Of a stretch of 64,000 bases of DNA, positions 19,858-47,500 are shown in pieces; positions within the stretch are counted from its first letter, which is position 1; the number at the start of each line of letters is the position of its first letter. Where the stretch lies: positions 544,001 to 608,000 of the forward strand of contig OY970195.1 in the NCBI GenBank assembly GCA_963708185.1, in the 5' to 3' direction. Position numbers and translations under genes: made by a program. The DNA is from Candidatus Peregrinibacteria bacterium. GTDB lineage: Bacteria; Patescibacteriota; Gracilibacteria; UBA1369. The notes under the pieces are model-generated. The model worked only from the letters and a program-made list of their open reading frames with translations. It was not told the origin of the DNA and ran no database searches.

Positions 19858-20781
19858 ATGTCAGTTTTTAATAGTTTTACACGTCGGTATGCACTTTCTA
19901 AGACGGTGAGGTTTGAGTTGAAGCCGGTTGGAAAAACTCGTATAAATATTGAAAAAGCTAATCCGAAATTTATTCATGATCAAGAAATTGAAGATGCGTA
20001 TCAGGTTTTGAAGCCGGTGTTTGATAAATTACACGAAGAGTTTATTATCTGCACTTTGAATGGTAAGGAGGCGAAGAAATTGGATGTGACGGAATATTTT
20101 AAGTTGTATCAAAAATTGCGAGCAGAGCAGGATAAAGATAAAAAAGACATGATTGAAAAAAATATTGGAAAAAGGGAAGGGGAATTGCGAAAGTTTTTTG
20201 GTGATATTTATGAAAAATCAGGAAAGCAATTTAAGGTAGATGCTATTGACCAAAATGCAAAAAATATGCTTGTTACCAAATTGGCTAATGCTGCAGATGA
20301 TAAAGAACAGAAGAAAATAAAAAAAGAAATAATGAAATTAGAATTTTTAAAAGAGAAAAGTTACAAAGTTTTGACTGAGGCGGGTATTTTGAAATATATC
20401 AAGGCGAGGATTGATCGTTTTGTAGCGATGGAGTTAAAAACGCGTGATGGGAAATTGGTGAATAAGGCGGATTTGGAGAAAGCATTGGGTACGACTCATT
20501 CAAAAGGTGTATTTGAAGGATTTTTCACTTATTTAAGCGGTTTTAATGAAAATCGTGAGAATTATTATTCTACAGATGAAAAAGCGACTGCAGTGGCAAA
20601 TAGAGTGGTTGGTGAAAACTTGCCAAAATTCTGTGATAACGTTTTAGGTTTTGAAAAACAAAAAAATAAATATTTAGGGATTTATAAGTTTTTGGAAGAT
20701 AAAAACATTGCTTTAAAGGGAAAAAGTCAGGATGGTCAAGATATTGATCTGGAACCGACAAGCAGGTTGGTACAAATATGA
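19858..20781 (+). pseudogene. cas12a: Truncated type V-A CRISPR effector Cas12a (N-terminal 307 aa only)
   Basis: FTRRYALSKTVRFELKPVGKT, DKLHEEFI, FFTYLSGFNENRENYY, NRVVGENLPKFCDN match the Cas12a WED-I/REC1 region; AT-rich; no RuvC part. Confidence 0.9.
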
Positions 20782-20947
20782 CCATTAAGAACCCCCAGTT
20801 TAAGAAAGCGCTGGAGAAAAACATAAGTTTGATCATCAATGATCTTGAACGGGACAGGTATAAAGAATATGAGATCTAGCCTCGGGGAAATATGGCTTTC
20901 CTTTCCTTTTTCCGTATACTATAATCACTGTCCAGTAACTTTGAGCC

Positions 20948-21988
20948 ATGTCCAAGAAAGTTCTTATTACCGGGGGGGCCGGGTTTATCGGGAGTAACTA
21001 CGTTCATTATTATGTGGAGCATCATCCCAAGGATGAGGTCGTGGTGCTGGATAAGCTGACCTATGCCGGGAATATGGATAATATTGCTTCGCTCGTGAAC
21101 GCCAAGAAGGTGCGGTTCGTGGGCGGGGATATTGCGGACCAGAACTATATTTCCAGCTTTTTCCAGACCGAGAAGTTCCATACGGTCATCAATTTTGCGG
21201 CGGAGACGCACGTGGACCGCAGTATTATTGATCCGCATATTTTTGTGCAGACCAACGTGATGGGCACGCATAATCTGCTGCTTTCTTCGCGCGATACGGG
21301 CGTCCAGCGCTACCATCAGATCTCCACGGACGAGGTCTACGGCGACCTGGGCGGCTCCAAAGATTACTTTACGGAAAAGACGCCCATCAATCCGAACTGC
21401 CCGTACGCGGCTTCCAAGGCGGCGGCGGATATTCTGGTGATGTCCTATTTTGAGACCTACAAGATGCCGATTACGATTTCCAGGTGCTCCAACAACTACG
21501 GGCCGTACCAGTTCCCGGAAAAGCTGATCCCGTTCTTTTTCCGGCTGGCTTCGGAAGATAAGCCTTTGCCGGTGTACGGCGATGGCCTAAACGTCCGCGA
21601 CTGGCTTTACGTGCTGGACCACTGCAGCGCGATCGATCTGATTGTTTCCAGCGATAAATACGGCGAGGTCTACAATATTGGCGGGCACAACGAATACACC
21701 AATCTGGAGATCACGCGGCATATTCTGAAGTTTCTGGGCAAGGATGAAAACCTCATCACGTTTGTGGAGGACCGCAAGGCCCACGACAGAAGGTACGCGA
21801 TGGACCCTTCAAAAATCGAACGCGAGCTGGGATGGAAGCCTTCGGTGACCTTTGACCAGGGCATCAAGAAGACTTTTGACTGGTACAAAGCGAATCCGGA
21901 ATGGGTGTCGAAACTTTCAGACCGCAACCACAAGGCATTATACAACACCAAGGTCGTGAGCAAGACGCCGCTCAAGACGACGAGATAG
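20948..21988 (+). CDS. rfbB: dTDP-glucose 4,6-dehydratase
   Basis: TGGAGFIG, DKLTYAGN, AAETHVDRS, STDEVYG, YAASK, NNYGPYQFPEKLIP. Confidence 0.96.
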   Translation: MSKKVLITGGAGFIGSNYVHYYVEHHPKDEVVVLDKLTYAGNMDNIASLVNAKKVRFVGGDIADQNYISSFFQTEKFHTVINFAAETHVDRSIIDPHIFVQTNVMGTHNLLLSSRDTGVQRYHQISTDEVYGDLGGSKDYFTEKTPINPNCPYAASKAAADILVMSYFETYKMPITISRCSNNYGPYQFPEKLIPFFFRLASEDKPLPVYGDGLNVRDWLYVLDHCSAIDLIVSSDKYGEVYNIGGHNEYTNLEITRHILKFLGKDENLITFVEDRKAHDRRYAMDPSKIERELGWKPSVTFDQGIKKTFDWYKANPEWVSKLSDRNHKALYNTKVVSKTPLKTTR

Positions 21989-28539: not shown

Positions 28540-29484
28540 ATGTCGCGCATTCTGGTTTCAGGTTCGCTGGCTTACGACCACGTGATGAATTATGACGGGC
28601 TTTTCAAGAACGTCATTCTTCCTTCCAAACTCGACCATCTGAGCGTGGCTTTTACGGCTTCAAAAAAAACGGTGAACTTCGGCGGATGCGCCGGTAACAT
28701 CGCCTACACCCTGAAGCTTTTCGGCTTGAACCCGCTGATACTCGCCGCCGTGGGGAGCGATTTTGCCGCATACGACAAATGGCTTAAACAGTGTGGCATC
28801 GACACCTCGGCACTGTTCCGGCATTCGGAAGTTCTCACGGCGAGCGCCACCATCATCACGGATCAGGAACAAAACCAGATCACGATTTTTTACGGAGGAG
28901 CAATGAGTTTCGCCCCGCACGTTTTGAGCGTCCGCGACCACAAGTACGACGGTCTGGATCTTGCCATCATCGCTCCGGACGATCCGCAGCGCATGGTGCG
29001 TCTGGCCAAAGAATGCAAAGAGATGAACATTCCCTATATTTTCGATCCGTCGCAGGCGCTGACGAACATGACGGTACCGGGTTTGCAGGAAGCCTTGAGC
29101 GGAGCCGCCATTTTGATCGGCAACGAGTACGAAGTGGAGCTTATCTGCAAGATGCTCGGCACGACCAAAGATCACCTGCCGGAACTTGTCCCGACGTTTA
29201 TCGAAACCTACGGAGCCAAAGGCTCGAGCATTGTTTCTCCGGAAGGGATGTTTTTCGTCAAAGCGGTGCAACCGGGAAAAATCGCCGATCCGACCGGATG
29301 CGGCGACGCTTTCCGCGCTGGCGTGCTTGCGGGTATGCAGATGAAACTCGGCATTGAAAAAGCCTGCCGGATCGGCGCGCTTGCCGCCACCTATTCCCTG
29401 GAACACGAAAGCACGCAGGGTCACACCTTTACCGTTGAAGCGTTTAAAAAAAGAATGGAAGACGATTACGGTGAAAGTTTTTAA
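28540..29484 (+). CDS. PfkB family carbohydrate/nucleoside kinase (adenosine kinase-like)
   Basis: GSLAYD, GGCAGNIAY, DPTGCGDAFRAG. Confidence 0.9.
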   Translation: MSRILVSGSLAYDHVMNYDGLFKNVILPSKLDHLSVAFTASKKTVNFGGCAGNIAYTLKLFGLNPLILAAVGSDFAAYDKWLKQCGIDTSALFRHSEVLTASATIITDQEQNQITIFYGGAMSFAPHVLSVRDHKYDGLDLAIIAPDDPQRMVRLAKECKEMNIPYIFDPSQALTNMTVPGLQEALSGAAILIGNEYEVELICKMLGTTKDHLPELVPTFIETYGAKGSSIVSPEGMFFVKAVQPGKIADPTGCGDAFRAGVLAGMQMKLGIEKACRIGALAATYSLEHESTQGHTFTVEAFKKRMEDDYGESF

Positions 29485-29493
29485 AAAGCGCAC

Positions 29494-29517
29494 AAAAAAA
29501 AGAACGCCGAAGCGTTT
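29494..29517 (-). terminator. Intrinsic terminator of cassette A
   Basis: Minus strand AACGC-TTCG-GCGTT followed by C and T8. Confidence 0.65.
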
Positions 29518-29586
29518 GAACTGAGCGCACGGCGCGAAGGCGTAAGCGTGTGGCTTTGCCACCGCTGGAGCGCGTTTAAAAAGAGA

Positions 29587-31089
29587 AAAACTCGCAGAAG
29601 TGTAAATCCCGGTCCGAAGAGGAGGAGGACGACCGCCGGTTTGAAAGGGGGGTCGGGATCACATGGATCCTGCAGTACCGCGTCGAGCGATACCGTTCCT
29701 CCGTCCTCTATCGGACGTGGGAAAGGTTATTCCCCCGCCGCTCTATGAGAGCGGCGGGGTACTGTTGTTGTTAATGGGTGAATGCTGCTTCAAGTCCGAC
29801 GGAATCGATCCGACGGACGAGCAGCGGTTGTTCCTCACTGCACGACGGCTGCGCACGCGATCTGAGACTGGCTGTCTCCGACCGCCTCGTTGTCGATCAA
29901 CGAGTTGTTGTTGGCCGTACCGCGATCGATGAACTCGGACGAGCAGGACCCGGGGAGGCAGTTGCGGAGGTCCGCAGCCGCGTCCTGGAGGCCCTGCAAC
30001 CCAGCCACGTAGCTGAGGTTGTCCGGGTTCTGCCCGTGGTTCGCGGCCAACACGCTCTTCAGCGGGTTGTACCACTCGCACGGGTGATCGCCCGAGCAGG
30101 TGAGGACGTTGTTCGCACCGTACAGGACGGCGCAAACCACGGTCGTCCCGTCAGACGAGCTGACGATGACGGTCTGGCCGGGGGTGAACGAGCCGTCCGT
30201 GGTGAGCGAGGCGTCGACCCAGCCGAGCGTGCTGCTCGACAGGGACGGCTTCCACGTCACGTCCGTGCCACCCGAGCTGTTCGGGACGCAGGTCCCGCTC
30301 GAGCAGTAGTAGCCGCTCGAGCAGGCCGGGGTGCAGCTTCCGCTGCCGTTGGGAACGCACACGCCGTTTTCGCACGTGGTGCCGGATCCGCAGCTGTTGT
30401 TGCAGTTGCCGGAGCCGGAGACGCACTGCCCGTTCGAGCAGTAGGTTCCCGACCCGCAGCTTCCGCCGCAGGTGTCGCTGCCGGACCCGTTGCCGCCGGG
30501 TACGCAGTACCCGTTGTTGCAGATCGTTCCCGTTCCGCAGGTCACGGAACAGGAGCCGGTCGCCGGGCGGCAGGTGGCGGGAGACGAACTGCTGTCGCAG
30601 TACGTGCCCCCATCGCACATGTCGTTGCACGGATCGTTGCCGCTGAACTGGCACTTGTCGGTGAGCGTGTTGCAGACGGCGCCGTCGTGGCAAATGCCGT
30701 CGCATGCCGTGTTGCTTCCGCCGCCCGTACCGCTGCACGCGGGATCGCCGTTCAAACAATACGGTTGGTCGTTGGACGACCCGCCGCAGCCGACGGCCGC
30801 GAGCGCGGTGACGAGGGTGACGAAGATGGCGACACTGAGCTTCAGGTTGGTCTTGGTCATGACTTGTTTCTCCAAACTGGGCTGAGGGCTTTGGGCCCCC
30901 CGAGGAATTTTGGGCTGTAGGGCCCTGGGTAGCACCACCATGGTGCGCCCCCGGTCCCTACTTCCTCGAAAGTTAGGGCCCGAATCCGACTGCTTTGCTG
31001 GCTGCGTCTATCTTCCACAAACGCAAAAACAAACAGGTTCGGACCCTGACTTTCTTGTTGAATAACCATTAAAATCTTCTGCGAGTTTT
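29587..31089. repeat. 14-bp inverted repeat enclosing cassette A
   Basis: AAAACTCGCAGAAG (29587-29600) is the reverse complement of CTTCTGCGAGTTTT (31076-31089). Confidence 0.85.
29835..30860 (-). CDS. Cys-rich repeat lipoprotein, myxobacterial style (cassette A)
   Basis: Lipobox LAAVGC; repeats C..TCG.GT.C.NG.CV; SD GGAGA before ATG. Confidence 0.8.
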   Translation of the reverse strand: MTKTNLKLSVAIFVTLVTALAAVGCGGSSNDQPYCLNGDPACSGTGGGSNTACDGICHDGAVCNTLTDKCQFSGNDPCNDMCDGGTYCDSSSSPATCRPATGSCSVTCGTGTICNNGYCVPGGNGSGSDTCGGSCGSGTYCSNGQCVSGSGNCNNSCGSGTTCENGVCVPNGSGSCTPACSSGYYCSSGTCVPNSSGGTDVTWKPSLSSSTLGWVDASLTTDGSFTPGQTVIVSSSDGTTVVCAVLYGANNVLTCSGDHPCEWYNPLKSVLAANHGQNPDNLSYVAGLQGLQDAAADLRNCLPGSCSSEFIDRGTANNNSLIDNEAVGDSQSQIACAAVVQ

Positions 31090-31176
31090 CAAAGAACTGT
31101 GCTGATGCACCGCTTGCGAAAAGACGCAAAAATACATCAGGTCACGAATGATACTATATTTTTGCTGTTTTGTCAA
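31086..31176 (-). promoter_or_regulatory. sigma70 promoter and boxA-like element of cassette A
   Basis: TTGACA (31176-31171)-N17-TATCAT; GTTCTTTGAAAA at 31097-31086. Confidence 0.75.
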
Positions 31177-31332
31177 TACTCCTGAGAACAAAAATATCAT
31201 ACGAATTCGTCCGGTTTTCAGGCCGGAAAATGATAATGTTTTCAAGGGTTTTCCATTACAAAAAAACCGCTGTCCCGAGTCAAAAACCGGAACAGCGGTC
31301 AAATCGCTCGTTCACCAGGTAAATTGGAAAAA

Positions 31333-32196
31333 TTAATGGGTTTCCACGATGCCGTCACTGGGAACGTCAGCGCAGTGGATGGCGACGTCCGTGTCTGCTA
31401 TCGGATCGTTTTCCTGCCAGCTCTGGTTGGAGCCCGCGGCGCGCCAGACAAAAGCGTTCGCCGGGCGGTATTGTTGAGGGGTCGTTCGGTAGCTGATGAG
31501 CTGCCCGGCCGCGTCTTTTGCGGCCTGTTGTGATGTTAAGTATGCCAAATCACCCGGGCTGTGGCCGGTTTGAGCCGCCAGAAAATTCGATTCAACATCC
31601 CACCATTCCCCGCTGCCGTTCATGGTTAAAATCGTGCCGCTGCCGTATCCGACAAAACAGACTGTCGCCGGGGTTTCGGTTTGATGAAACCAGACCGTGT
31701 TTCCCAAAGGGTAATTTGCTCCACCGTTGTTGATGGTCTCTATCCAGCCGTTTCCGGAACCTGCGTGCGCATTCTGCCAGGTGACTCCTGCAAAGGTATC
31801 ATGGGAAACCGGATCACATTTTTTGGTGTCGGGATTGCAGACCGTTCCTTTTCCGCAAAGATTGTCGCAAGGATCGTTGTTAGTGTCGGGAACACAGTGT
31901 TTTGTGGCTTCATCACAGTGTGTTCCACTGCCGCAATTATCACCGCAGACGTTCATTCCGGCATCGGAACCACCGTCTCCCAAGCTGTAAGGACCGTCAT
32001 CGGATCCGCCGCATCCCTGGGAAAGCAGCCCCATGCTGATACCCGCAGCCGCAAGAAATTTAAGTACCGCTCCGCGGGCCTGATGACGTTTTGACGTAAA
32101 GTTTGGCGTCGAAACTCCGCTTGTTGCCGCAGATTCAGGATGAGGGATCGCATCCGGCCGTGAAAAAACCGCTTCAGCCTGTTGTGGGTGAGACAT
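31333..32196 (-). CDS. Cys-rich lipoprotein paralog of cassette A gene, in resident-genome style
   Basis: LLSQGC lipobox, two Cys repeats, C-terminal domain alignable to 29835-30860; no SD. Confidence 0.75.
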   Translation of the reverse strand: MSHPQQAEAVFSRPDAIPHPESAATSGVSTPNFTSKRHQARGAVLKFLAAAGISMGLLSQGCGGSDDGPYSLGDGGSDAGMNVCGDNCGSGTHCDEATKHCVPDTNNDPCDNLCGKGTVCNPDTKKCDPVSHDTFAGVTWQNAHAGSGNGWIETINNGGANYPLGNTVWFHQTETPATVCFVGYGSGTILTMNGSGEWWDVESNFLAAQTGHSPGDLAYLTSQQAAKDAAGQLISYRTTPQQYRPANAFVWRAAGSNQSWQENDPIADTDVAIHCADVPSDGIVETH

Positions 32197-32313
32197 AGGT
32201 TTGGGGGTTAGGGATATGAAAAAAGGGTGTTGTGAACGTGATTGACATATTTCTGAAAACTTTAATGCAAACTCCGGCAGGTTCATTACAAAATACAGGT
32301 TGCATAGATAAGG

Positions 32314-32355
32314 AAAAGGGCCGTCCTCGTAGCTTGTAAGCTTTGAAGACGGCCC
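32314..32355 (-). terminator. Intrinsic terminator of cassette B
   Basis: Minus strand GGGCCGTC...GACGGCCC-TTTT. Confidence 0.65.
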
Positions 32356-32547
32356 CTGATCCTGTTCTGATTGTCTTTGGCCTCCGCATAGCGGGGCTGT
32401 GCACCGTGACCGTGAGGTCTTGGCGCAATCCGGTTCATGAAATATCCATTCTGCCTTACTTTCCGCGAAGGCTTGCGTGCTTCGATGAGAGTCGAAACCG
32501 CTCTTGCCCGAATGCAGTCGGACGCTGTGTGCGAATGTAGGGCCTAC

Positions 32548-34884
32548 TCAGTAGTTGAAGACGAAATAGGCCCAGTTGGACGGACAGTCCGCGCTCACCG
32601 AGAACGATCCGGGGTTGGTCTTGAGAAGGACGTACCCCGTCGTGTAGATCGCTCCGTAGAGATCGGGTTCCAGCTTCGGCGCCGGTCCGGGAGAAGGAGC
32701 CGAAGGAGCGCACTTGAAGTAGACGCTCAACGGCCCCGTTCCCGAAGCGAACGTGAAGTCGACGGTCTGTCCGGGAGTGAGGTTGATTGCGACCCCGACA
32801 TCGTCATTCGGTGAAGTGTTGACGGTGAAGGGGGTGCTCTGGCAGGTAGTGTCGTCCGATGACGAATCTCCGAGGATGACTCCGTAGTGGAGATGAATCA
32901 CCTTGGTACAGGTGCCCGCTTCGATGCAGGTACCCGTGGTAGACGAGCAGGGACCGCCGGCATCGCTGCCGCCGCTTCCTCCCGAACCCGAGCTACCACT
33001 GGAACCGCCGGAACCGCTGGAGCCGGAGCTCCCGCTCGTTCCACCGGAACTGGTACTTCCGGCTGCACCACTGCTTCCGGCAGTGCCTCCGCTTCCGCCG
33101 CTTCCGGCATCTGCAGGAACACACATGTCGGTTGCAATGTCGCAGACCGTACCTGCTCCGCAGGCGCCTCCACAAGGAAGGCCGCCATCAGAGCCGCCCG
33201 CACCACCACTACCGGATGCGCCCCCACTGCCGCCGCTGCCGGCGTCAGATGGGACACACATGTCGGTCATGGTGTCGCAGACGGTGCCAGCTCCGCACTT
33301 TCCGTCACACGGCAAGACGAGGTCGCACAACCCCGTCATCGTGTTACAGACCGTACCGAGACCGCAGTGACCGCCGCAAGGATCTCCCCCGCCGCTGCCA
33401 CTGGACCCCGAACTGCCGCTGGAACCGCTGGAGCCGGAGCTCCCGCTAGATCCAGCACTGCCACTCGTGCCGCCGCTGCCTCCGGATCCGGAGGTGCAGA
33501 CACCCAGGGTGACGTTGCACGTCGTCCCTGGGCCGCATGCGCAGCTGCACGGATCCATGGCCGGGGTGCACGAACCGGCATCGCTGCCGCCCGCGCCTCC
33601 CGTTCCGGATGAACCAGATGAACCGGAAGAGCCGCCGCTGCCGGAGCTTCCCCCGGTGCCGCCGCTGCCTCCAGATCCGCCGGAGATATCGCACAGCCCC
33701 GTCATGGTGTTGCACACCGTGCCGGGGCCGCACTTATTCCCACAGGGATCGGTTCCTCCGCCGGAACCGCCGCTTCCGCCGCCACCCATATCCCGGTAGC
33801 AGTCGTTGTCGACGATTCCGTCGCAGTCGTTGTCGATGTGATCCCCGCACTCCTCCGGGCCCGTAGGCACGCAGATGCAGAGCGGAAGACCGTCATCAAC
33901 CTTGTTGTTGCAGTCGTTGTCGCGACCGTCGCAGACTTCGGGCATGGGCGAGCCCGGGATTGCGTCGCAACGGGTTGCCCAGGGCCCGTCGCAGATCACC
34001 TTGCCGAAGGCAAGGCAATCCCCAACGCCGAGAGTGCAGGGAAGGTTCGTCCCCCAGCCCTCGTCGATGAGGCTGTTGCCGTTGTTGTCGATACCGTCAC
34101 ATTTCTCGGCAACACAGAGCTTCGTGACGGGGTTGCAGACGGTGGTGCTTCCACAGACGCCGCCGCAGGGATCGCTCCCCGAGTCGCCGCCGCTTCCGCT
34201 GTCACCGCCAGTTCCGGAGTCGCCCCCGGTGCCGGCGTCGGACCCGCCCGTTCCTCCATCGCTGGATTCACAGGTGCAGGTCGACGTGTTGCAGTGGGTT
34301 CCCTGGCCGCAGTGGTTGTTGCAGTTGTTGCAACTCCCGCCGTCGGTGTTGGGAACACACTGTCCGTTGAGGCAGGTCGTGCCGGAGCCACAGTGGCCCC
34401 CGCAGTCCCCGCCGCCGTCTCCGCCCGGTACGCATTGCTTTGTATCCGGGTCGCAGACGGTAAGGGGTGGAGCGCAATGCCCTTTGCAGGGATCGCCTCC
34501 GCCGCCGGTCTCGCACTTGCCAGTATCCACGTTGCACGTGGTCCCGGAGGCGCAATGACCGCCGCACGGATCTCCACCACCCGCGACGCACTTGTCGGTC
34601 GCGACGTCGCAGGTGGTTCCGGGAGCGCATTTGCCGTTACAGGGATTGCTCCCCGGCGGCAAACACTTTCCGGTGTTTTGATCGCAGACGGTTCCGGGGC
34701 CACACGTGCCCTCGCAAACGTCCACGCCGCCCTCTCCGGTTCCGGAGCTTCCTCCGGTTCCGGGAGGGCATTGCCCGTTGAGGCAGAAGGGATGGTCTCC
34801 CTCGCTGCTGCATCCCACCGCGATAGCGATGGGGGCGAACAGTGAGAGTACCACCCACTTCCACCGCCTACGCGGTGAATACAT
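32548..34884 (-). CDS. Large Cys/Gly-rich repeat lipoprotein with MopE-related metal-binding repeats (cassette B)
   Basis: IAVGC lipobox; many DPC.G.C..GT.C repeats; EKCDGIDNNGNSLIDEG, EVCDGRDNDCNNKVDDG; GGSSG and DAG linkers; SD GGAGA before ATG 34884. Confidence 0.82.
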   Translation of the reverse strand: MYSPRRRWKWVVLSLFAPIAIAVGCSSEGDHPFCLNGQCPPGTGGSSGTGEGGVDVCEGTCGPGTVCDQNTGKCLPPGSNPCNGKCAPGTTCDVATDKCVAGGGDPCGGHCASGTTCNVDTGKCETGGGGDPCKGHCAPPLTVCDPDTKQCVPGGDGGGDCGGHCGSGTTCLNGQCVPNTDGGSCNNCNNHCGQGTHCNTSTCTCESSDGGTGGSDAGTGGDSGTGGDSGSGGDSGSDPCGGVCGSTTVCNPVTKLCVAEKCDGIDNNGNSLIDEGWGTNLPCTLGVGDCLAFGKVICDGPWATRCDAIPGSPMPEVCDGRDNDCNNKVDDGLPLCICVPTGPEECGDHIDNDCDGIVDNDCYRDMGGGGSGGSGGGTDPCGNKCGPGTVCNTMTGLCDISGGSGGSGGTGGSSGSGGSSGSSGSSGTGGAGGSDAGSCTPAMDPCSCACGPGTTCNVTLGVCTSGSGGSGGTSGSAGSSGSSGSSGSSGSSGSSGSGGGDPCGGHCGLGTVCNTMTGLCDLVLPCDGKCGAGTVCDTMTDMCVPSDAGSGGSGGASGSGGAGGSDGGLPCGGACGAGTVCDIATDMCVPADAGSGGSGGTAGSSGAAGSTSSGGTSGSSGSSGSGGSSGSSGSGGSGGSDAGGPCSSTTGTCIEAGTCTKVIHLHYGVILGDSSSDDTTCQSTPFTVNTSPNDDVGVAINLTPGQTVDFTFASGTGPLSVYFKCAPSAPSPGPAPKLEPDLYGAIYTTGYVLLKTNPGSFSVSADCPSNWAYFVFNY

Positions 34885-35136
34885 CGTTTTCTCCATGTGC
34901 CGGTCGTCACCGGCGTCGAAATTCCTCCGCAGGTGCGATCGTCATCGCAGCGGATTCACACTTTGCGCCGACCGTATTGTCTGGCGCGATGTTCTTGTTG
35001 GTAAACGATCGCGCCATAGTCGGCGACGTTGGTTGAGGTTGAGGTTTTGCATTCCCCGCGGGTGACGGATGTCGAATCCGTAAACCCGCGGGGTGCGCGA
35101 GGTGCCGTCTCAATTCCTTGCGGAAGAGCCGGCGGA

Positions 35137-36276
35137 TCAGAAACGGGCCCCGAGCGTACCGTGGGCATCGATGGCAGCGGCGTAGACGTTCTTGTCGCCG
35201 CCGTCGATGTGGTAGGACTGCATGAACGGCAACTGGGGAGAAGTCCCCAGCCCGAGGTAGACGCCGCGCCTCTCGTCTCCCGTCAACATGAAGTTGACGC
35301 CGAGATTGAGCGCGAGGCCGCCCTCGATGTCGTTCTTGGCGTGGTTGTTCCAGACCGTACCATCGGCCGCCTGGCCGATGTTGGTGTCGGGAACGTGAAT
35401 CCAGCGCATGAACGGGCCACCACCCAGGACGACGTCCACGCGGCTCCCCACCGGGATGCCCGCCTGGAACATGACGCCCCACCAGGTGATGTCCTGCCAC
35501 ACGCTGGGCTCGGTGAGCGGAACGCCCACCACGCCGCGGTTGTCGATGCGGCCGCGGGCATACCCCGCGAACGCTGCAACCTCGAAGGCCGTCTCGTTCA
35601 CCGGACCCACGTGGTACGTGAACTGTCCCTGCACGCCTCCCGCGACATCGAAGCCGCCGGTACGGAAGTACGCCATCGGCTCGAGGTCGAGCCTGGTGCG
35701 TCCGTCCGAACCGAAATGGGCACCCAAAGGCTCGTACCTCGAGTCGGATTCCGGCCTGGTGTAGGAGTCGCCGATGTTGGCCTTGCCGACGAGATCGCTC
35801 TTGTCGGCCTTGCCGTCGAGCTTGCCGTTGACCGCGTCGATGGCCGGCTGTTCCACGAGCTTGTCCTTGCCGTAGACCATCACGGTGAAGGTAGCACCGC
35901 TACCGTCCGTGAAGGTCAGCGTCTTGGACGCACCCGGGTCGACCGCCACCTCGCCCTCGAACTCCGCGAACGCGGAGACGAGGACGACAGTGGTGCCGCT
36001 CTTCGTTTCCGACACCTCGGGCTTCGTCAGCGGAGCCGGGAAATCAGAAGAAGTGACCTTCCCCTGGGTCCCGTTCTTGCAGTACAGGCGAATCCGAAGA
36101 CTCGCCGAACCGCGGACCACCACACCGGAGGTGTTGGTGGTGCCGACGTAGTCCTGGATGCCGTCCTTGAAGATGAGCGGCTGCCGACAATCGGCAGCGA
36201 ACGCGGTCTTGCCCACCACGATGGTGGCGAGCGCGAACACCAACCCGACGAACCCTTTCATGAGCTTGTGAGACAT
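35137..36276 (-). CDS. Secreted protein with putative outer-membrane beta-barrel C-terminal domain (cassette B)
   Basis: Signal peptide ending AFA; alternating hydrophobic strands; ends HGTLGARF; SD-like AAGGTG. Confidence 0.7.
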   Translation of the reverse strand: MSHKLMKGFVGLVFALATIVVGKTAFAADCRQPLIFKDGIQDYVGTTNTSGVVVRGSASLRIRLYCKNGTQGKVTSSDFPAPLTKPEVSETKSGTTVVLVSAFAEFEGEVAVDPGASKTLTFTDGSGATFTVMVYGKDKLVEQPAIDAVNGKLDGKADKSDLVGKANIGDSYTRPESDSRYEPLGAHFGSDGRTRLDLEPMAYFRTGGFDVAGGVQGQFTYHVGPVNETAFEVAAFAGYARGRIDNRGVVGVPLTEPSVWQDITWWGVMFQAGIPVGSRVDVVLGGGPFMRWIHVPDTNIGQAADGTVWNNHAKNDIEGGLALNLGVNFMLTGDERRGVYLGLGTSPQLPFMQSYHIDGGDKNVYAAAIDAHGTLGARF

Positions 36277-36289
36277 GTTTTTCACCTTT

Positions 36290-36980
36290 CATCTGACTGT
36301 TGAACTCTTGTGTCCGAGCCGCGCTATGGGAGCAACGAACCGGACGAACCTATGATACTCCGCCTTATGGGCGGTGGCCGCCTACGGCCCAACTTTTCCT
36401 TTGAATCGTAAGGCCGATACGGCCTAAACCGCCCGCCACCACAGCGGAGCGGTTCGCCCTTAGTGCATGTAACTACCCTTTCGGGGCTGCATGCACATAG
36501 GGCCGAGGCGGTGGTGTGGGCGCCTCTTGCGGAAGCGCTTCATACTACCTTTTCCTTTCCTCTACCCTCTTGCTCTTACCTTAACTCACCGAAGTGTGAG
36601 TATGTCGGCGAACTCGAGAGCTCATAACTACTCTCCAGGGCTGGGCCCTATTAAGCAGACCCGTCAAACGGACCTGCAGAAAAGCAGCTTTGAGCTCTCG
36701 AGTCACCAAAAAAATTTTAGAATGTTTTGTACACACGAACTTGCGTTGGCCCGCTCTTAAGGAGCTAGCACACTCGCTTCTTCGTGTTTCATGAACCGGA
36801 TTTTCAAAGATCCATCAGTACAGGAAGCCCAAACAAACAATTTCGTTCTGTTTGAGCTTGTAAAAGACACTTAAAATCGAGCCCTTCCAGCCTTTTCCTT
36901 TGCCGGAATCAGTAGCCCGATGTTCAATTTGTGTCTTTTATAAGCCCAAAAGAGTTGAGGGGTAGGTAAATTTTTAAAGG
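36290..36980 (-). ncRNA. Long structured 5' leader RNA of cassette B
   Basis: About 700 nt between promoter and first ATG with many stems, e.g. ACTCGAGAGCTCA/TGAGCTCTCGAGT (36612-36624/36691-36703). Confidence 0.55.
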
Positions 36981-37015
36981 AAGTAATTATAACCACAAAA
37001 GTCTATTTTTGTCAA
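36801..37015 (-). promoter_or_regulatory. sigma70 promoter and boxA-like element of cassette B
   Basis: TTGACA (37015-37010)-N18-TATAAT (36991-36986); GATCTTTGAAAA at 36812-36801. Confidence 0.75.
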
Positions 37016-37169
37016 TACATTTCGGGTCATATTTCTCCCTTTACCCTCGTAAATGCTTTTTGGCTTCGGGTATTACAAAACTGCGGTTTGAAATTTTGAA
37101 AAATTATGATGCAATCTTGAAGAGATCTTCTCTTTCGCGTGAAAGCTATTTTTGGGCTACAATACAATC

Positions 37170-38303
37170 ATGAAGCAAACACCTCATTTTGTGATTTGCG
37201 GAAATTACGGCGCCACCAACATTGGTGACGAAGCTATTTTGCAAAGCATTTTGCAGTTTTGCCGCCACGCTTTTCCGCATGCGGACATTACCGTCATCAG
37301 TTCGAATCCCGCACGCACCGCCGAGCAGTACGACGTCAAAACCGTTCCGATGATGCCCGCTGGCCTTCGCTCCTACGTCAAAGCTTTTTTCAGCAGAAGC
37401 ATGCGAAAAACACTCCATGCCTATAAACGCGCCGACGCCGTCATTTTTGGCGGAGGAGGCCTTTTTACCGATGAAAGACCACACGCCATTTTCATCTGGC
37501 TCATGCAAATTCTTCCCGCTTTCCGATATAAAAAGCCAGTAATGAGTCTCGGTCAAAGCGTCGGTCCGCTCATGAACAGATGGAGTCGCTGGGTCGTGGG
37601 GAAAATTTTCAGGAAAATGAAAATCGTTACCGTCCGCGATGAAGCCTCGCAACTGCTGCTCAGAAAACTGAACGTCCGCAACATCCACGTTTTGCCTGAC
37701 CCTGTTTTTGGCTTTCACCTGAGGAAATCACACGAATCTCCAGCCCCACGCGAACGCAAACCCTACATTGTTTTTTCGTTGAGGCCGTGGATCAGAAATG
37801 CCGAAAAAATCCGCGGAATTCTCGCGCAATTCGTTGACTGGATTTTTGAAACGTACCATCTGCGCACCTACTTCGTTCCCTTCCAGTCGCTCCATGATGA
37901 TGACGAAAATGAATGTCTCCAGGTTCTTCTCAAACTGGAACATCGAAGCGTCTGCGAGGTTCTTTCGCACAATGAAGAGATGCGTGACACCCTCAAATTG
38001 ATGGAAGAGTCCACGGCGGTTATCGGGATGCGTCTTCATTCCATTATTTTTTCTGCGATAACGCATACCCCGTTTTTAGCGCTTTCCTACAGCCTAAAAG
38101 TAGCAGAGGTTGCCAAACAGCTTGGGATGGAAGACTTCCTGGACGAGTACCGGTTCGTGGATCTGGATACGTTGAAAAAGAAATTCGAAAAACTTTTCAG
38201 TGAGCGAACGCACGTGGAAAAATCTCTTGAGGAAATGCATAAAGAGCTGGAGCACAAAACCGAACAGTATGCTCACATGATCAAACAGCTTGTGGATGCC
38301 TGA
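37170..38303 (+). CDS. csaB: Polysaccharide pyruvyl transferase, CsaB-like
   Basis: GNYGATNIGDEAIL, GGGGLF.D, QSVGP, TVRDEAS, GMRLHS. Confidence 0.85.
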   Translation: MKQTPHFVICGNYGATNIGDEAILQSILQFCRHAFPHADITVISSNPARTAEQYDVKTVPMMPAGLRSYVKAFFSRSMRKTLHAYKRADAVIFGGGGLFTDERPHAIFIWLMQILPAFRYKKPVMSLGQSVGPLMNRWSRWVVGKIFRKMKIVTVRDEASQLLLRKLNVRNIHVLPDPVFGFHLRKSHESPAPRERKPYIVFSLRPWIRNAEKIRGILAQFVDWIFETYHLRTYFVPFQSLHDDDENECLQVLLKLEHRSVCEVLSHNEEMRDTLKLMEESTAVIGMRLHSIIFSAITHTPFLALSYSLKVAEVAKQLGMEDFLDEYRFVDLDTLKKKFEKLFSERTHVEKSLEEMHKELEHKTEQYAHMIKQLVDA

Positions 38304-44506: not shown

Positions 44507-47500
44507 ATGTCCGGAAAAGAACACCACAGACCGCTTACCCTCGAGGAAATGCAGGAGGAAGAGGAACTGAAAGCCGCCGAGCACCTGCACGAAGGCATTA
44601 AAGGCTTTTATTTGACCGATCCGTTTGATGGGGATATTGAACCGGAACGTCTTGGTGTTCGTGACGATATCGCCCATGCGCTTGAGCACGACTATCACGG
44701 GAAACGCGTTCAGGATGTCCTCCTTGATGCCCGGGTTACTGAACAGCTGCGACAAAAGATAAAACGAAAAAAATCCCATGAACACAAAACATGGAAACGG
44801 CTTGTTCCAGGCAGTGAGGAGTGGATGGGCAATAGAAAGCGAGAGATAAAGAATGCTGCTCGTACTTTAACAAACCCGATGCGTTGGTTCAGAGACGATT
44901 TTGATGAATATGCAGAAGAGATACAAAAGGAGTTCTGGGGAGATCCGGATTCTAACAAAAAAATCCGGAATGATCTTATTCAAGCGGTCAACCTCAATGC
45001 TCTTCCGCAGGATATTCAGGATAAAATCAAAAAATCTTTTGGAGCAATAAAGCCTGGTTCTCCGTCATTAGATCAACTCTTTTCCAGCGCTGACAACAAA
45101 AAACTTCTAGAACTTCTGGGAAGCATTAAAGACAATGGAGGTAAAAAATTTTTTGAAGGAAATGCAGCTTTTCAAAGACTTCTTGCGGCCAGTATACCTG
45201 AAGAACCTTACGCAAATGAGTTGATGCTGCATTCCCGTGACCGTTTGTATTTTTTTACCAAATATGAAATAGGAGCGATTTCCGATCAGAATGAACAAAA
45301 AAGGGTTGTGGGCACAATAAACAATGTTTTTGGAATACAAAGTGACACCACTTTGGCTGACTTTGACCATTTTTTAAAAGCTACCCCTGATCAACTTCAA
45401 AAACTTTCGAAAACATTTGATGCTATTTTTGTAGAGGGAAAAGCAAAAATCGGAAAACAGCACATTGAGAGAATCAGAGAAATTGAAAGAATTATAGCTA
45501 TCGAAAAAGCAAAAATTTTAAGCGTACAGATTTATGATCCACATCGACTGCAAGATCAATTTGTACATAAAATTTCTGAATCTACAGCCTCCGCCGAAGA
45601 TAAAGATCTAAAAGAAAAACTCGAAAAACTTCTCGGTGGTCATTTTGATCGACAGATGGAACAAGACCACAATTTACAGGCTTTATTGGCAGAACTTGAG
45701 TCTCAAAGAGCAACGAATATTACTCAACTTAATGAGCATCTTGAAAATGTATTGATTGATTACCCGGTCGAAAAAAGGACTGTCGTAAAAAGAGAGCTCT
45801 CTGAAGATGAAAAACAAAACAATCAGAAACTTGATGAATACGTTGAAACCATAAATAATGTCGCAATAAAACTCGATGAAAAACTCGATGAAAAACAAAA
45901 AATTAACAGTTCATTCATAGATATTGGAAGGAAAAGGAATGATTTGGAAAAAACCAGAGGAGCTAAAAAACAACAAGAACATGAGGTAAAAATGAAGATA
46001 GGAAATGTACGCGAAGAGCGTAAAAAAGCTATTATAGAAATTGACTCAACCCAGAGCAATCTTACTGAAAAAGAACTAGAGATTAATACAGCAAAATCTG
46101 AATGTGATCGTATTGAACGTGAATTACGTGATGAAAAAAAGAAAAACAATCCTGACCAAAGTGTGACTAGTAAACTTGAAAAAGATTTAAGTGATAGAAA
46201 GGAAGAACTCGAACATTTAAAAACAGATGCCAAAGGTTTAAGAGCTAAACTTCAGGAAAAAAAGGCTCTTAAAACAGACGTCGATCAAGATCTTGAGAAG
46301 CTGGAGAAAGAACTTCGGGAAATCGCGACGCTTGATGAATTTGCAGATTTGAAGACAAAAAATGCTGAATTTACAAACCGTGAAAACGAACTTAAAAAGA
46401 GGTTATTGGAACTCAACAAAGAAATCGTTGAGGCAGAGCGTGAGTTTAAAAAATCCGCAAACAGTTTTGTGATGTTTGTCGAAAAAACAATGAAGAAAGA
46501 GATTAAAGGCACAGTCCTGACAAATGACGTAAAAATCAAAATGATCAAAGATACTCTAACCACATTGAACCCTTCGTTTGTGAAACAAATCGCTACTGAC
46601 CTTGTGTTTAAAAATGAGTTTAATCAAGAAATTAACGTGCTTAAAGCTGTAGGAACTGAGGTCAAAAGTCTTTCACCAGATAATTTACTTTTTGAATTAA
46701 AAAAGCAACAAACATTGGCTATACAAGAAAATGGCCACTCAAAGTATACTGATGAGCAGGCAAACAAAATAGCCCGTATGGCTACTTCATTTGCTGAAAT
46801 TGACGCCAAGAACGTTGAGCTCTTCCGTGCCGGGAACCGCGAGATCGCCGAAAGCAAAGTTAAGGGATGGCGTGGAATTGAAGGGGTATGGAGAAAATCC
46901 AAACAGCAGGCGGCTTCCAGGTTTTTTGACAGTGAAACCTTCCGGGCGCGTGATATTATTGAACATATCGCCGGGCTTGATCATGCCTTTGAATGTTTCA
47001 AAGACCTTCCTGCCGACGCTTCTCTTACGGATATCCGCAACGCCATCAAACACCACGGCGGCATGAGTACGGAAAATCTCATGAAGTTCTACCTGCATCT
47101 CCAGGAAGCTTTGAAGTCTTTTCAGGTCGGTGGACATCGTATCGTGGAAATTGCCGATCACGACTGGCCGATCGAACAGGTCGCTCTTTTTGCCGAACGT
47201 ATCCATGCGGAGATCGAGGCCCGTGAATTCTGTCATAAGATTGAACATCCGGAAACGGAAGAAGACAAGAAACTTTCCAAAGATAACAAAGCCGCGTATT
47301 TCCAGAAACTTCTTAACCAGCGCGACGAAAATCTTAAGAATCTCGAGCAGCAACATCTTGAAGAGATGCGCAATCCGAGCAGTCTCTGGCAGACGAGTTT
47401 TTTGAAGAGCCTGATGAAGGGCAAATTCGGTGAAGCTTATGACAAAGCGCTCAAAGCCGCGAAAGAAAAGGGGCTGAAAGGACAGGCGATGAGGGACTAT

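Follow-up and report, generated by a model that had tools for sequence, protein, structure and literature searches.

Protein-coding transcripts with predicted end-to-end RNA closure beside a boxA-like element in a GC-rich island of a Peribacteria genome

Why would a gene for a lipoprotein be bracketed by two complementary strands, one of them overlapping a boxA-like element, in an arrangement that recalls the precursors of ribosomal RNA (pre-rRNA)? This question is raised by cassette A, which is located at the left edge of a GC-rich island (29.6-36.7 kb, ~65% GC) in the 64,000 nt of DNA analyzed here (the window; positions 544,001-608,000 of contig OY970195.1, assembly GCA_963708185.1, Candidatus Peregrinibacteria bacterium). 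The host is a bacterium of the Peribacteria (Candidate Phyla Radiation), and its genome, designated G000, is a single contig of 1.44 Mb that is 99% complete and has a GC content of 49.8%. Comparison with relatives indicates that the RNA of cassette A (unit 1) and that of a second unit in the same island (unit 2) are very probably closed end to end by pairing between their untranslated regions (UTRs), and sequence comparison by itself gives good support to both long-range helices and to the UTR folds that have been conserved. In the direction of transcription, cassette A is composed of the following parts (MFE, minimum free energy; consensus columns refer to the five-sequence fold of the 3' UTR):

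31148-31176, minus strand: strong sigma-70 promoter, TTGACA, 17 nt, TATCAT; 11/12 consensus matches, the second best in 29400-37200
31102-31140, minus strand: leader hairpin in a boxB-like position upstream of the boxA-like element, from the MFE fold
31086-31097, minus strand: boxA-like element GTTCTTTGAAAA
31076-31090, minus strand: 5' strand of the end-to-end helix P1, overlapping the AAAA of the boxA-like element
31060-31067, minus strand: 5' strand of the second helix P2, GGUUAUUC in RNA, present in the co-fold MFE structure
30883-31054, minus strand: structured 5' UTR with a stem-loop (~30968-31054), nested stems (~30902-30967), and a hairpin (~30883-30900)
30870-30873, minus strand: Shine-Dalgarno sequence GGAG, 9 nt ahead of the ATG at 30860-30858, by reading
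29835-30860, minus strand: gene A, encoding a 341-aa lipoprotein
29784-29825, minus strand: 3' UTR hairpin H1, directly past the stop codon; consensus columns 20-63, with several compensatory pairs
29733-29759, minus strand: 3' UTR hairpin H2, 12 bp, with the conserved loop CUCAUA and GUAC and GGAAU flanks; consensus columns 93-125
29725-29732, minus strand: 3' strand of P2, GAAUAACC in RNA
29607-29722, minus strand: long imperfect 3' UTR stem H3, which forms a three-way junction with P1 and P2; consensus columns 142-259
29586-29600, minus strand: 3' strand of P1
29503-29516, minus strand: intrinsic terminator, AACGCTTCGGCGTT followed by a T run

The 5' strand of P1 has its partner 1.5 kb further downstream, just ahead of the terminator, and the whole message, UTRs and coding region, is thereby enclosed. 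P1 consists of AAAACTCGCAGAAG at 29587-29600 on the plus strand and its exact reverse complement at 31076-31089; the 14-mer has two exact copies in the 1.44 Mb genome, i.e., both arms, and the helix extends to 15 bp in the co-fold (31090-31076 with 29586-29600). These 14 nt are the longest perfect inverted match between the non-coding flanks of the cassette, and the maximum in 300 dinucleotide shuffles was 11. Both arms are kept in the five lineages compared, while the enclosed protein A is just 42-66% identical, and by reading, the 3' strand is situated 10-20 nt ahead of the terminator in the four lineages other than G000. The first-pass annotation, made from the sequence of the window, had described a boxA-adjacent 14-bp stem closing about 1.5 kb, and the stem has held up in full.

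The lineages compared are G000, three further species of its genus in which the island is syntenic (G002, G003, and G004), and L039, which together with L045 forms a pair of near-identical metagenome contigs from a more distant relative whose flanking DNA has ~40% GC. The pattern scan of genome contigs returned 16 loci, including three true relatives (G002, G003, and G004), and that of metagenomes returned 26 loci, consisting of two true relatives (L039 and L045) and 24 chance matches. The congener G001 (220 contigs, 90% complete) carried an island fragment only, at a contig end. In the five lineages, the position and orientation of the island are unchanged, and the elements of cassette A follow the same order: promoter, leader hairpin, G-N-Y-CTTTGAAAA, 5' arm, structured 5' UTR, gene, structured 3' UTR, 3' arm, and terminator. 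By reading, the promoter GTATTGACAAAA...TAGTATCAT is also present in G002, G003, G004, and L039, and the stem halves of the leader hairpin (CTGATGTAT / GTGCATCAG) are retained in 5/5 lineages. An insertion of ~110 nt containing a GGCCTTTAAAAGCC hairpin occupies the loop of this leader hairpin in G004 (locus L028) and L039 and is absent from G000, G002, and G003.

A second match of 8 nt had also been proposed to extend the closure. It proved to be real, is formed in the co-fold, and covaries among the lineages; only its coordinates had to be moved by one base, to 31060-31067 and 29725-29732. The P2 sequences are GGTTATTC in G000, GAAAAGTTATT in G002, TTAACAGTT in G003, TTGAATGTTTATTC in G004 (with one mismatch), and TTGAAGAGA in L039, and the cognate combination gave the best summed duplex energy of the 120 permutations of the five lineages. 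Long-window RNAduplex calculations (70 nt against 276 nt) were uninformative owing to long interior loops, with 41-195 of 300 shuffles equally good for the P2 windows, and short-window tests of cognate against non-cognate duplexes were used in their place.

Closure by a long-range helix is repeated in unit 2, whose parts, together with the gene situated between the two units, are listed here:

36986-37015, minus strand: promoter of unit 2, TTGACA, 18 nt, TATAAT; 12/12 consensus matches
32427-36812, minus strand: unit 2, containing two genes (D, then C)
36801-36812, minus strand: boxA-like element GATCTTTGAAAA
36787-36802, minus strand: 5' strand of the end-to-end helix, AATCCGGTTCATGAAA, directly after GATCTTTGAAAA
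35137-36285, minus strand: gene D, the first gene of unit 2, encoding 382 aa with a signal peptide
32548-34896, minus strand: gene C, the second gene of unit 2, encoding a 782-aa secreted lipoprotein rich in Cys, Gly, and Ser
32427-32442, minus strand: 3' strand of the end-to-end helix
31333-32196, minus strand: gene B, a paralogue of the C-terminal domain of A (32% identity to A), between the units and not enclosed

As in cassette A, a leader hairpin precedes the boxA-like element of unit 2. The inverted repeat of this unit measures 16 nt and is 100% complementary, against a shuffle maximum of 12, and in five lineages TCTTTGAAAA leads directly into an end-to-end helix of 16-18 bp that is different from P1. 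The helix varies by compensatory substitutions (AATCCGG.../...CCGGATT in G000, TTCAG/CTGAA in G002 and G003, TTCGG/CCGAA in L039, and a U.G pair in G004), and the cognate pairing was again the best of 120 permutations. Pairing around the whole enclosed RNA has thus been kept in evolution, with P1 retained and P2 and the unit 2 helix covarying, and in both units it joins the 5' and 3' UTRs of one protein-coding transcript.

These comparisons bear on whether the inverted repeats could instead function in DNA, as terminal inverted repeats or as sites of recombination or inversion that bound a mobile or exchangeable cassette, itself rich in GC and derived from a GC-rich donor, with the RNA pairing being incidental. 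Such an origin would agree with the start and stop of the GC-rich content close to the arms, with the hypervariable cargo proteins between conserved flanks, and with the near-invariance of P1 in unit 1. However, the arms of units 1 and 2 are unrelated in sequence and share only the CTTTGAAAA word and its position (10/10 instances), which is a strong argument against recombination sites or transposon ends. Likewise, the arms of unit 2 and P2 keep pairing and not sequence, and the U.G pair works in the sense RNA only. A mobile element with terminal inverted repeats is further contradicted by the P1 14-mer, found in the genome only as the two arms, by the locus and orientation fixed in 5/5 lineages, and by the gene content: there are no large open reading frames (ORFs) beyond A-D and no Pfam-recognisable enzyme among these, although no search was aimed at transposases or recombinases. 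No GC-rich donor appeared among the homologues of protein A (five at E<=0.001 among 5.8 billion proteins), and the GC content at third codon positions (GC3) is near 0.9 despite saturated synonymous sites. We therefore regard a DNA-level function as extremely unlikely and retain the reading of the arms as an RNA helix.

What, then, is the element that accompanies both helices? Compared with the boxA consensus GYTCTTTAANA, taken from PMC5725501, the G000 unit 1 form GTTCTTTGAAA agrees at 10/11 positions and the other nine instances (GATCTTTGAAA, GGTCTTTGAAA, and GACCTTTGAAA) at 9/11. The word CTTTGAAAA is invariant in 10/10 instances (two units in five lineages), and position 8 is G in all of them but A in the rRNA forms. 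In cassette A, the element is located in the predicted leader, downstream of the promoter and hairpin and ~225 nt upstream of the start of gene A. The same placement is found in the organism's own rRNA leaders, whose genes are situated as follows:

G000:C1:372254-373755: 16S gene
G000:C1:377947-381062: 23S gene

In the 16S leader, the arm of the processing helix comes immediately after GTTCTTTAACA and has its partner beyond the 16S gene, and in the 23S leader, TGTTCTTTAACAA and two bases precede the arm, with the partner after the 23S gene. Similarly, the 5' strand of the helix overlaps or directly adjoins the boxA-like element in both units and in all lineages (offset 0-3 nt). The 16S and 23S genes form separate transcription units, and each unit is equipped with a promoter, hairpin, boxA, and processing helix of its own; downstream of 16S there is a protein-coding ORF. 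Taken together, the repetition of the design in unit 2, the similar layout of the 16S and 23S leaders, and the compensatory changes in the UTRs support the initial reading of this locus as a cassette. The enclosed RNA in the region of units 1 and 2 is nevertheless not rRNA, as it belongs to no Rfam family and contains ORFs with signal peptides, a lipobox, and protein homologues. At gathering scores, Rfam returned two tRNAs and nothing else in the whole window, and at E up to 5 it gave only four chance-level matches in 29400-37200.

Exact G[AG]TCTTTGAAAA sites also occur elsewhere in the genome (388018, 965078, 1241581, and 1431169); these were rejected as further units, being without a long-range complement or a GC-rich downstream region. 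A third exact TCTTTGAAAA in the window (45169-45178) is surrounded by ordinary sequence, and no boxA-like word within one mismatch was found in 31096-36800.

With respect to the factors that might act on the element, nusB (G000:C1:667595-667969) and the RNase III gene rnc (667052-667441) are adjacent and on the same strand, and RNase J is encoded as well, together with RNase Y and another RNase Y-like protein; the RNA decay set of G000 is of the B. subtilis type. In this 99% complete genome, Rho was not found with PF07497, and nothing scored above the TIGR00767 cut-off; hence, plain anti-Rho antitermination is an unlikely role for boxA here. From the position of the TCTTTGAAAA element, the rRNA parallel, and the presence of the factors, we infer that it is a candidate binding site for NusB/S10.

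Closure might also take place without Nus factors or RNase III. The CTTTGAAAA word would then be part of the helix, the site of another protein, or an anti-Shine-Dalgarno-like pyrimidine run, and the pairing would keep RNase Y, RNase J, and 3' exonucleases away from the leader and both ends, as in the hbs message. For hbs, a 14-bp interaction of the 5' UTR with the 3' UTR, one that modulates RNase Y cleavage, is documented (PMC5737220), and both RNase Y and RNase J are encoded in G000. In addition, the motif differs from the genus rRNA boxA at 2/12 positions, P1 is short for RNase III, and the boxA-like stretch pairs with the Shine-Dalgarno region when the 5' region is folded alone. Nonetheless, this explanation has to accommodate a CTTTGAAAA word that is invariant in 10/10 instances beside two unrelated helices, and an element that follows a hairpin and directly adjoins a long-range helix, which is the place of boxA in the 16S and 23S leaders of the organism itself. 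Moreover, a self-folding RNA of 1.5-4.4 kb would seem to need help in pairing its ends, which is the role of the transcription complex rrnTAC on rRNA. We consider closure without Nus unlikely, although it deserves to be kept in view, and continue with the boxA-like element as a putative Nus site.

The structure of the enclosed RNA was assessed against dinucleotide shuffles for the UTRs. The 5' region of cassette A gave z = -5.09 and the 3' region z = -9.20, with 0/200 shuffles as good in each case. When both UTRs were co-folded, the MFE was -238.9 kcal/mol compared with -161.8 +/- 6.7 kcal/mol for the shuffles (z = -11.5; 0/100 as good), and the joined UTRs, on whose folding energy the first-pass annotation had made its reading depend, are thus far more stable than shuffled controls. 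The co-fold contains the 15-bp P1 and the 8-bp P2, and 67% of the UTR bases are paired, which makes the earlier statement that almost all non-coding bases appear paired an overstatement. The individual folds that it had named were recovered: the long stem (~29607-29722), the 12-bp hairpin (29733-29759), and the adjoining hairpin (~29784-29825) all appear in the five-sequence consensus fold of the 3' UTR, where compensatory changes affect 25 of 64 pairs, and the nested GGGCCC / CGAGGAA / GTAGGG stems are present in the 5' UTR at ~30902-30967. The consensus fold of the 5' UTR from five sequences comprises 43 pairs, with compensatory changes in eight. The stem of H2 has a different sequence in each lineage, and the cassette A 5' UTR shows 76-79% DNA identity between G000 and G002/G003, comparable to housekeeping genes. 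In unit 2, the 5' UTR (z = -8.2) and the D-C spacer (z = -5.9) are also strongly folded.

The position of the Shine-Dalgarno sequence relative to these folds allows another possibility to be weighed, namely that the boxA-like element and the 5' arm block this sequence until the 3' arm is made, whereupon P1 would free the ribosome-binding site and only full-length transcripts would be translated. [quoted passage not shown] However, the complementarity is short (5-7 bp, by reading) and would be expected for any CUUU run facing a purine-rich Shine-Dalgarno sequence, and ~200 nt of stable structure separates the two elements. P1 and P2 (31060-31090) themselves do not cover the Shine-Dalgarno sequence (30870-30873), for which GGAG/AGGA occurs at the equivalent place in orthologous loci. 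We consider translation gating of this type highly unlikely, and the helices are again taken as closing the transcript. An ATG in a hairpin loop of the 5' UTR (30939-30941), which would give a 368-aa ORF in G000, was rejected as the start of gene A; the equivalent ATG of G002 is out of frame with the gene, so it is probably unused.

Structure is not confined to the UTRs. Across the 1.44 Mb genome, just two stretches reach a 1-kb GC of at least 0.62, and these are units 1 and 2. GC3 amounts to 0.89 in A, 0.86 in D, and 0.72 in C, compared with 0.55 in B, 0.57 in EF-Tu, and 0.61 in GroEL. Codon adaptation was considered as the cause of the high GC3 and rejected, because EF-Tu and GroEL have lower values and prefer other codons (GGT/GCT), unlike the GC-rich units; the bias is therefore not ordinary codon adaptation. 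Among the A orthologues of the five lineages, GC3 is 0.87-0.96 in hosts of ~40-50% GC, and four-fold sites share the same base in just 40-41% of cases. Since GC3 has been kept although the four-fold sites have diverged, the bias appears to be maintained and not to be a fading trace of transfer.

The coding RNA was compared with synonymous-codon permutations that leave the protein, codon usage, and GC content unchanged. The coding sequence (CDS) of A had an MFE of -507.7 kcal/mol against -448.9 +/- 8.1 kcal/mol (z = -7.3; 0/40 permutations as low), and the CDS of D gave z = -6.8 (0/30); the A orthologues of G002 (z = -3.3) and L039 (z = -2.9) were likewise lower than all permutations (0/25 each). 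Control CDSs did not show this pattern, with z = -0.5 for pfkB (13/40 as low), +1.6 for an rmlA-like gene (28/30), and -1.4 for gene B (4/30), the unenclosed internal control of host-like composition. Per nucleotide, A and D reach an MFE of about -0.50, compared with -0.35 for the organism's own 16S.

An origin of both the GC content and the apparent structure in GC-biased gene conversion, acting in a recombination hot spot of surface genes and leaving the closing helices as a separate, minor matter, would suit the hypervariable surface proteins between conserved flanks, as well as the maintenance of GC3 at 0.87-0.96 in hosts of 40-50% GC. Yet permutations with the same GC content and codon usage fold worse than the native sequences, by 59-66 kcal/mol for A and D of G000 and 27-29 kcal/mol for the G002 and L039 orthologues of A, so that composition alone does not explain the structure. 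Furthermore, the zones of high GC match the intervals enclosed by the helices, and the paralogue B between them is not GC-rich. Gene conversion as the overall explanation is accordingly scarcely credible to us, and selection on RNA structure within the closed units is preferred.

Regarding the genes, island genes A, B, C, and D all lie on the minus strand, with a pfkB-family kinase gene on one side and a downstream housekeeping gene on the other. The proteins inside the enclosed units share just 32-66% identity between species, and Pfam assigned no family above cut-off to proteins A-D. Protein A has a signal peptide, a lipobox (...AAVGC), Cys-rich CxxGxxC repeats, and a conserved C-terminal domain. 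Its AlphaFold2 model, built from a seven-row alignment, was too poor for a fold search (mean predicted local distance difference test score, pLDDT, 50.2; predicted template modelling score, pTM, 0.34). The G003 orthologue of A (locus L027) is split by an in-frame stop or frameshift into two matches, whose open frames measure 124 and 411 aa, and the G004 copy of cassette A (locus L028) contains NN; both may be assembly errors in repeat-rich, GC-rich sequence. Gene B has two candidate start ATGs (32286 and 32196), and its flanks contain an inverted match of 8 nt at most. Protein C shows a weak Cu-binding_MopE motif (25 bits, under the cut-off of 27), and protein D was found in 4/205 genomes of the order, all of one genus.

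Between the P1 3' arm and the terminator of cassette A (29505-29590) lies a GC-rich repeat element of ~70 nt, present at this place in G000 only among the lineages. It has four matches in G000, the others at ~373957-373992, 871317-871337, and 965121-965163, with a related copy after the 16S gene, and many copies in relatives, in tandem in G010. Elsewhere in the window, two stretches (20001-21000 and 45001-47000) are AT-rich, with a GC of 0.35-0.38 against a background of 50%.

We consider it reasonably probable, short of being confident, that cassette A is a single-gene unit whose product is a Cys-rich surface lipoprotein, lineage-specific and fast-evolving, and whose RNA is built like pre-rRNA, and that the following mechanism operates in full. 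By analogy with rRNA transcription complexes, NusB/S10 would attach to the nascent RNA at its boxA-like element and keep the 5' arm at the polymerase, so that when the 3' arm emerges, the ends could pair reliably in spite of the 1.5-4.4 kb of strongly self-folding RNA that separates them. RNase III would then trim the closed end, as in pre-16S, or the end would be left sealed. The resulting message would be compact: RNase J would meet no free 5' end in single-stranded form, and RNase Y would find few A/U stretches unpaired. Being poor in entry sites for both enzymes, the message would be long-lived. From this analogy we infer Nus binding, RNase III cleavage, higher stability, and high expression.

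A broader proposal, which we put forward tentatively and as possible more than probable, is that such units are natural mRNAs mimicking pre-rRNA. Their transcripts, UTRs and codons alike, would have been selected to fold compactly and would be made and matured through the rRNA pathway (a Nus/boxA tether and RNase III trimming), yielding ultra-stable messages for surface adhesins that evolve fast, in an episymbiont that grows slowly and is poor in ribosomes, and the high GC content would be a result of selection on RNA structure and not of foreign origin. An earlier genome paper on Peribacteria describes extracellular proteins that are large and Cys-rich, differ from strain to strain, and may serve in attachment to other cells (PMC4736985), a description that fits the cargo found here. 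If the proposal is true, the Nus/boxA machinery could act on messages as a chaperone that joins their ends, in an organism in which no Rho was found, and the units would be a natural counterpart of engineered highly structured mRNAs. It would also offer an alternative to horizontal transfer for GC-rich islands in small genomes and point to the surface proteins in which Peribacteria apparently invest most. The natural compensatory variants of the two helices make the idea directly testable with reporters.

Several observations weigh against the mechanism proposed for cassette A. Only five lineages are available for comparison, all of them close relatives, and P1 of unit 1 hardly varies among them, so that P1 alone cannot tell an RNA helix from a DNA site. 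A second helix in unit 2 was unsupported (34/120 permutations). A loose scan of the single genome for a boxA-like word with any complement of at least 12 nt within 9 kb returned 11/307 motifs, compared with 14/548 in the reversed-genome control; as the background is as high as the signal, the weight of the evidence rests on the comparison with relatives. The MFE of sense against antisense RNA leaves the strand undecided, the sense strand being better for both 5' UTRs and CDS D and the antisense strand having a slight advantage for the 3' UTR, the D-C spacer, and CDS A. With respect to the boxA-like element, 2/12 positions differ from the genus rRNA boxA GTTCTTTAACAT, including A8 to G, and A occupies the Y position in 4/5 lineages. 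In the 16S leaders of 30 relatives' loci, the G variant was not seen; the motif search picked up a convincing rRNA boxA (TGTTCTTTAACAT) in just 5/30, and in the rest it gave nothing or weak A/T-rich matches that were not credited. Finally, roughly two helical turns are usually quoted for a substrate of RNase III. The helices of unit 1 (P1, 13-15 bp) and unit 2 (16-18 bp) are shorter than this and than the organism's own rRNA helices (~30 bp, by reading), and neither unit reaches a duplex of two helical turns.

How these units relate to known systems can be stated element by element. In literature searches, with supplementary files outside their scope, we found no published description of boxA together with a leader-trailer helix around protein-coding genes, nor of these Peribacteria cassettes; boxA on mRNAs, bacterial 5'-3' UTR pairing, and rRNA leader-trailer helices are each known singly and occur here together around protein-coding genes, whose codons also appear to be under selection for pairing. 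None of the systems compared below combines a boxA abutting a transcript-closing helix, a protein-coding cargo, and structure throughout the coding region. The closest is the pre-rRNA leader-trailer helix with rrnTAC (NusA, NusB, NusE/S10, NusG, SuhB, and S4) and RNase III, in which rrnTAC bridges the boxBAC leader to the polymerase, thereby holding both halves of the RNase III helix near each other and enhancing cleavage during transcription, as reported in a 2026 preprint (10.64898/2026.03.17.712431). The order of promoter, hairpin, boxA, 5' arm, 1.5-4.4 kb of structured RNA, 3' arm, and terminator is shared, and it is identical in the organism's own 16S and 23S units. In contrast to pre-rRNA, the cargo here consists of secreted-protein genes, the predicted helices measure 13-18 bp instead of ~30 bp, and in the boxA-like word positions 8 and 11 are G and A.

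Elements of the boxA type also act on mRNAs, namely suhB of E. coli and Salmonella and a ParE-like toxin gene of Citrobacter koseri, which likewise carry boxA in the 5' UTR of a protein-coding gene and for which an RNA loop between boxA and the polymerase has been proposed as the working principle (PMC5725501). In the suhB type, boxA lies at most ~50 nt from the start codon, represses translation, and promotes Rho termination, whereas the boxA-like element of cassette A is ~225 nt upstream and abuts the transcript-closing helix, in a genome where Rho was not found. The hbs message of B. subtilis (PMC5737220) resembles cassette A in its 14-bp pairing of the 5' and 3' UTRs and differs in being a message of ~0.4 kb without boxA, a second helix, a three-way junction, or a GC-rich, hyper-structured coding region. 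Pairing between UTRs within one bacterial mRNA, linked to RNase III, is likewise shown by icaR of S. aureus (PMC3868564); there, the 3' UTR pairs with the Shine-Dalgarno sequence and represses translation, whereas P1 and P2 of cassette A are situated >180 nt upstream of it. Lastly, designed superfolder and other highly structured therapeutic mRNAs (PMC8499941, 10.1101/549022) share with these units synonymous choices that maximize pairing, for which a longer functional half-life has been proposed. Those mRNAs are engineered and eukaryotic, whereas the units described here are natural and bacterial and combine their coding-region structure with predicted closure of the transcript ends.

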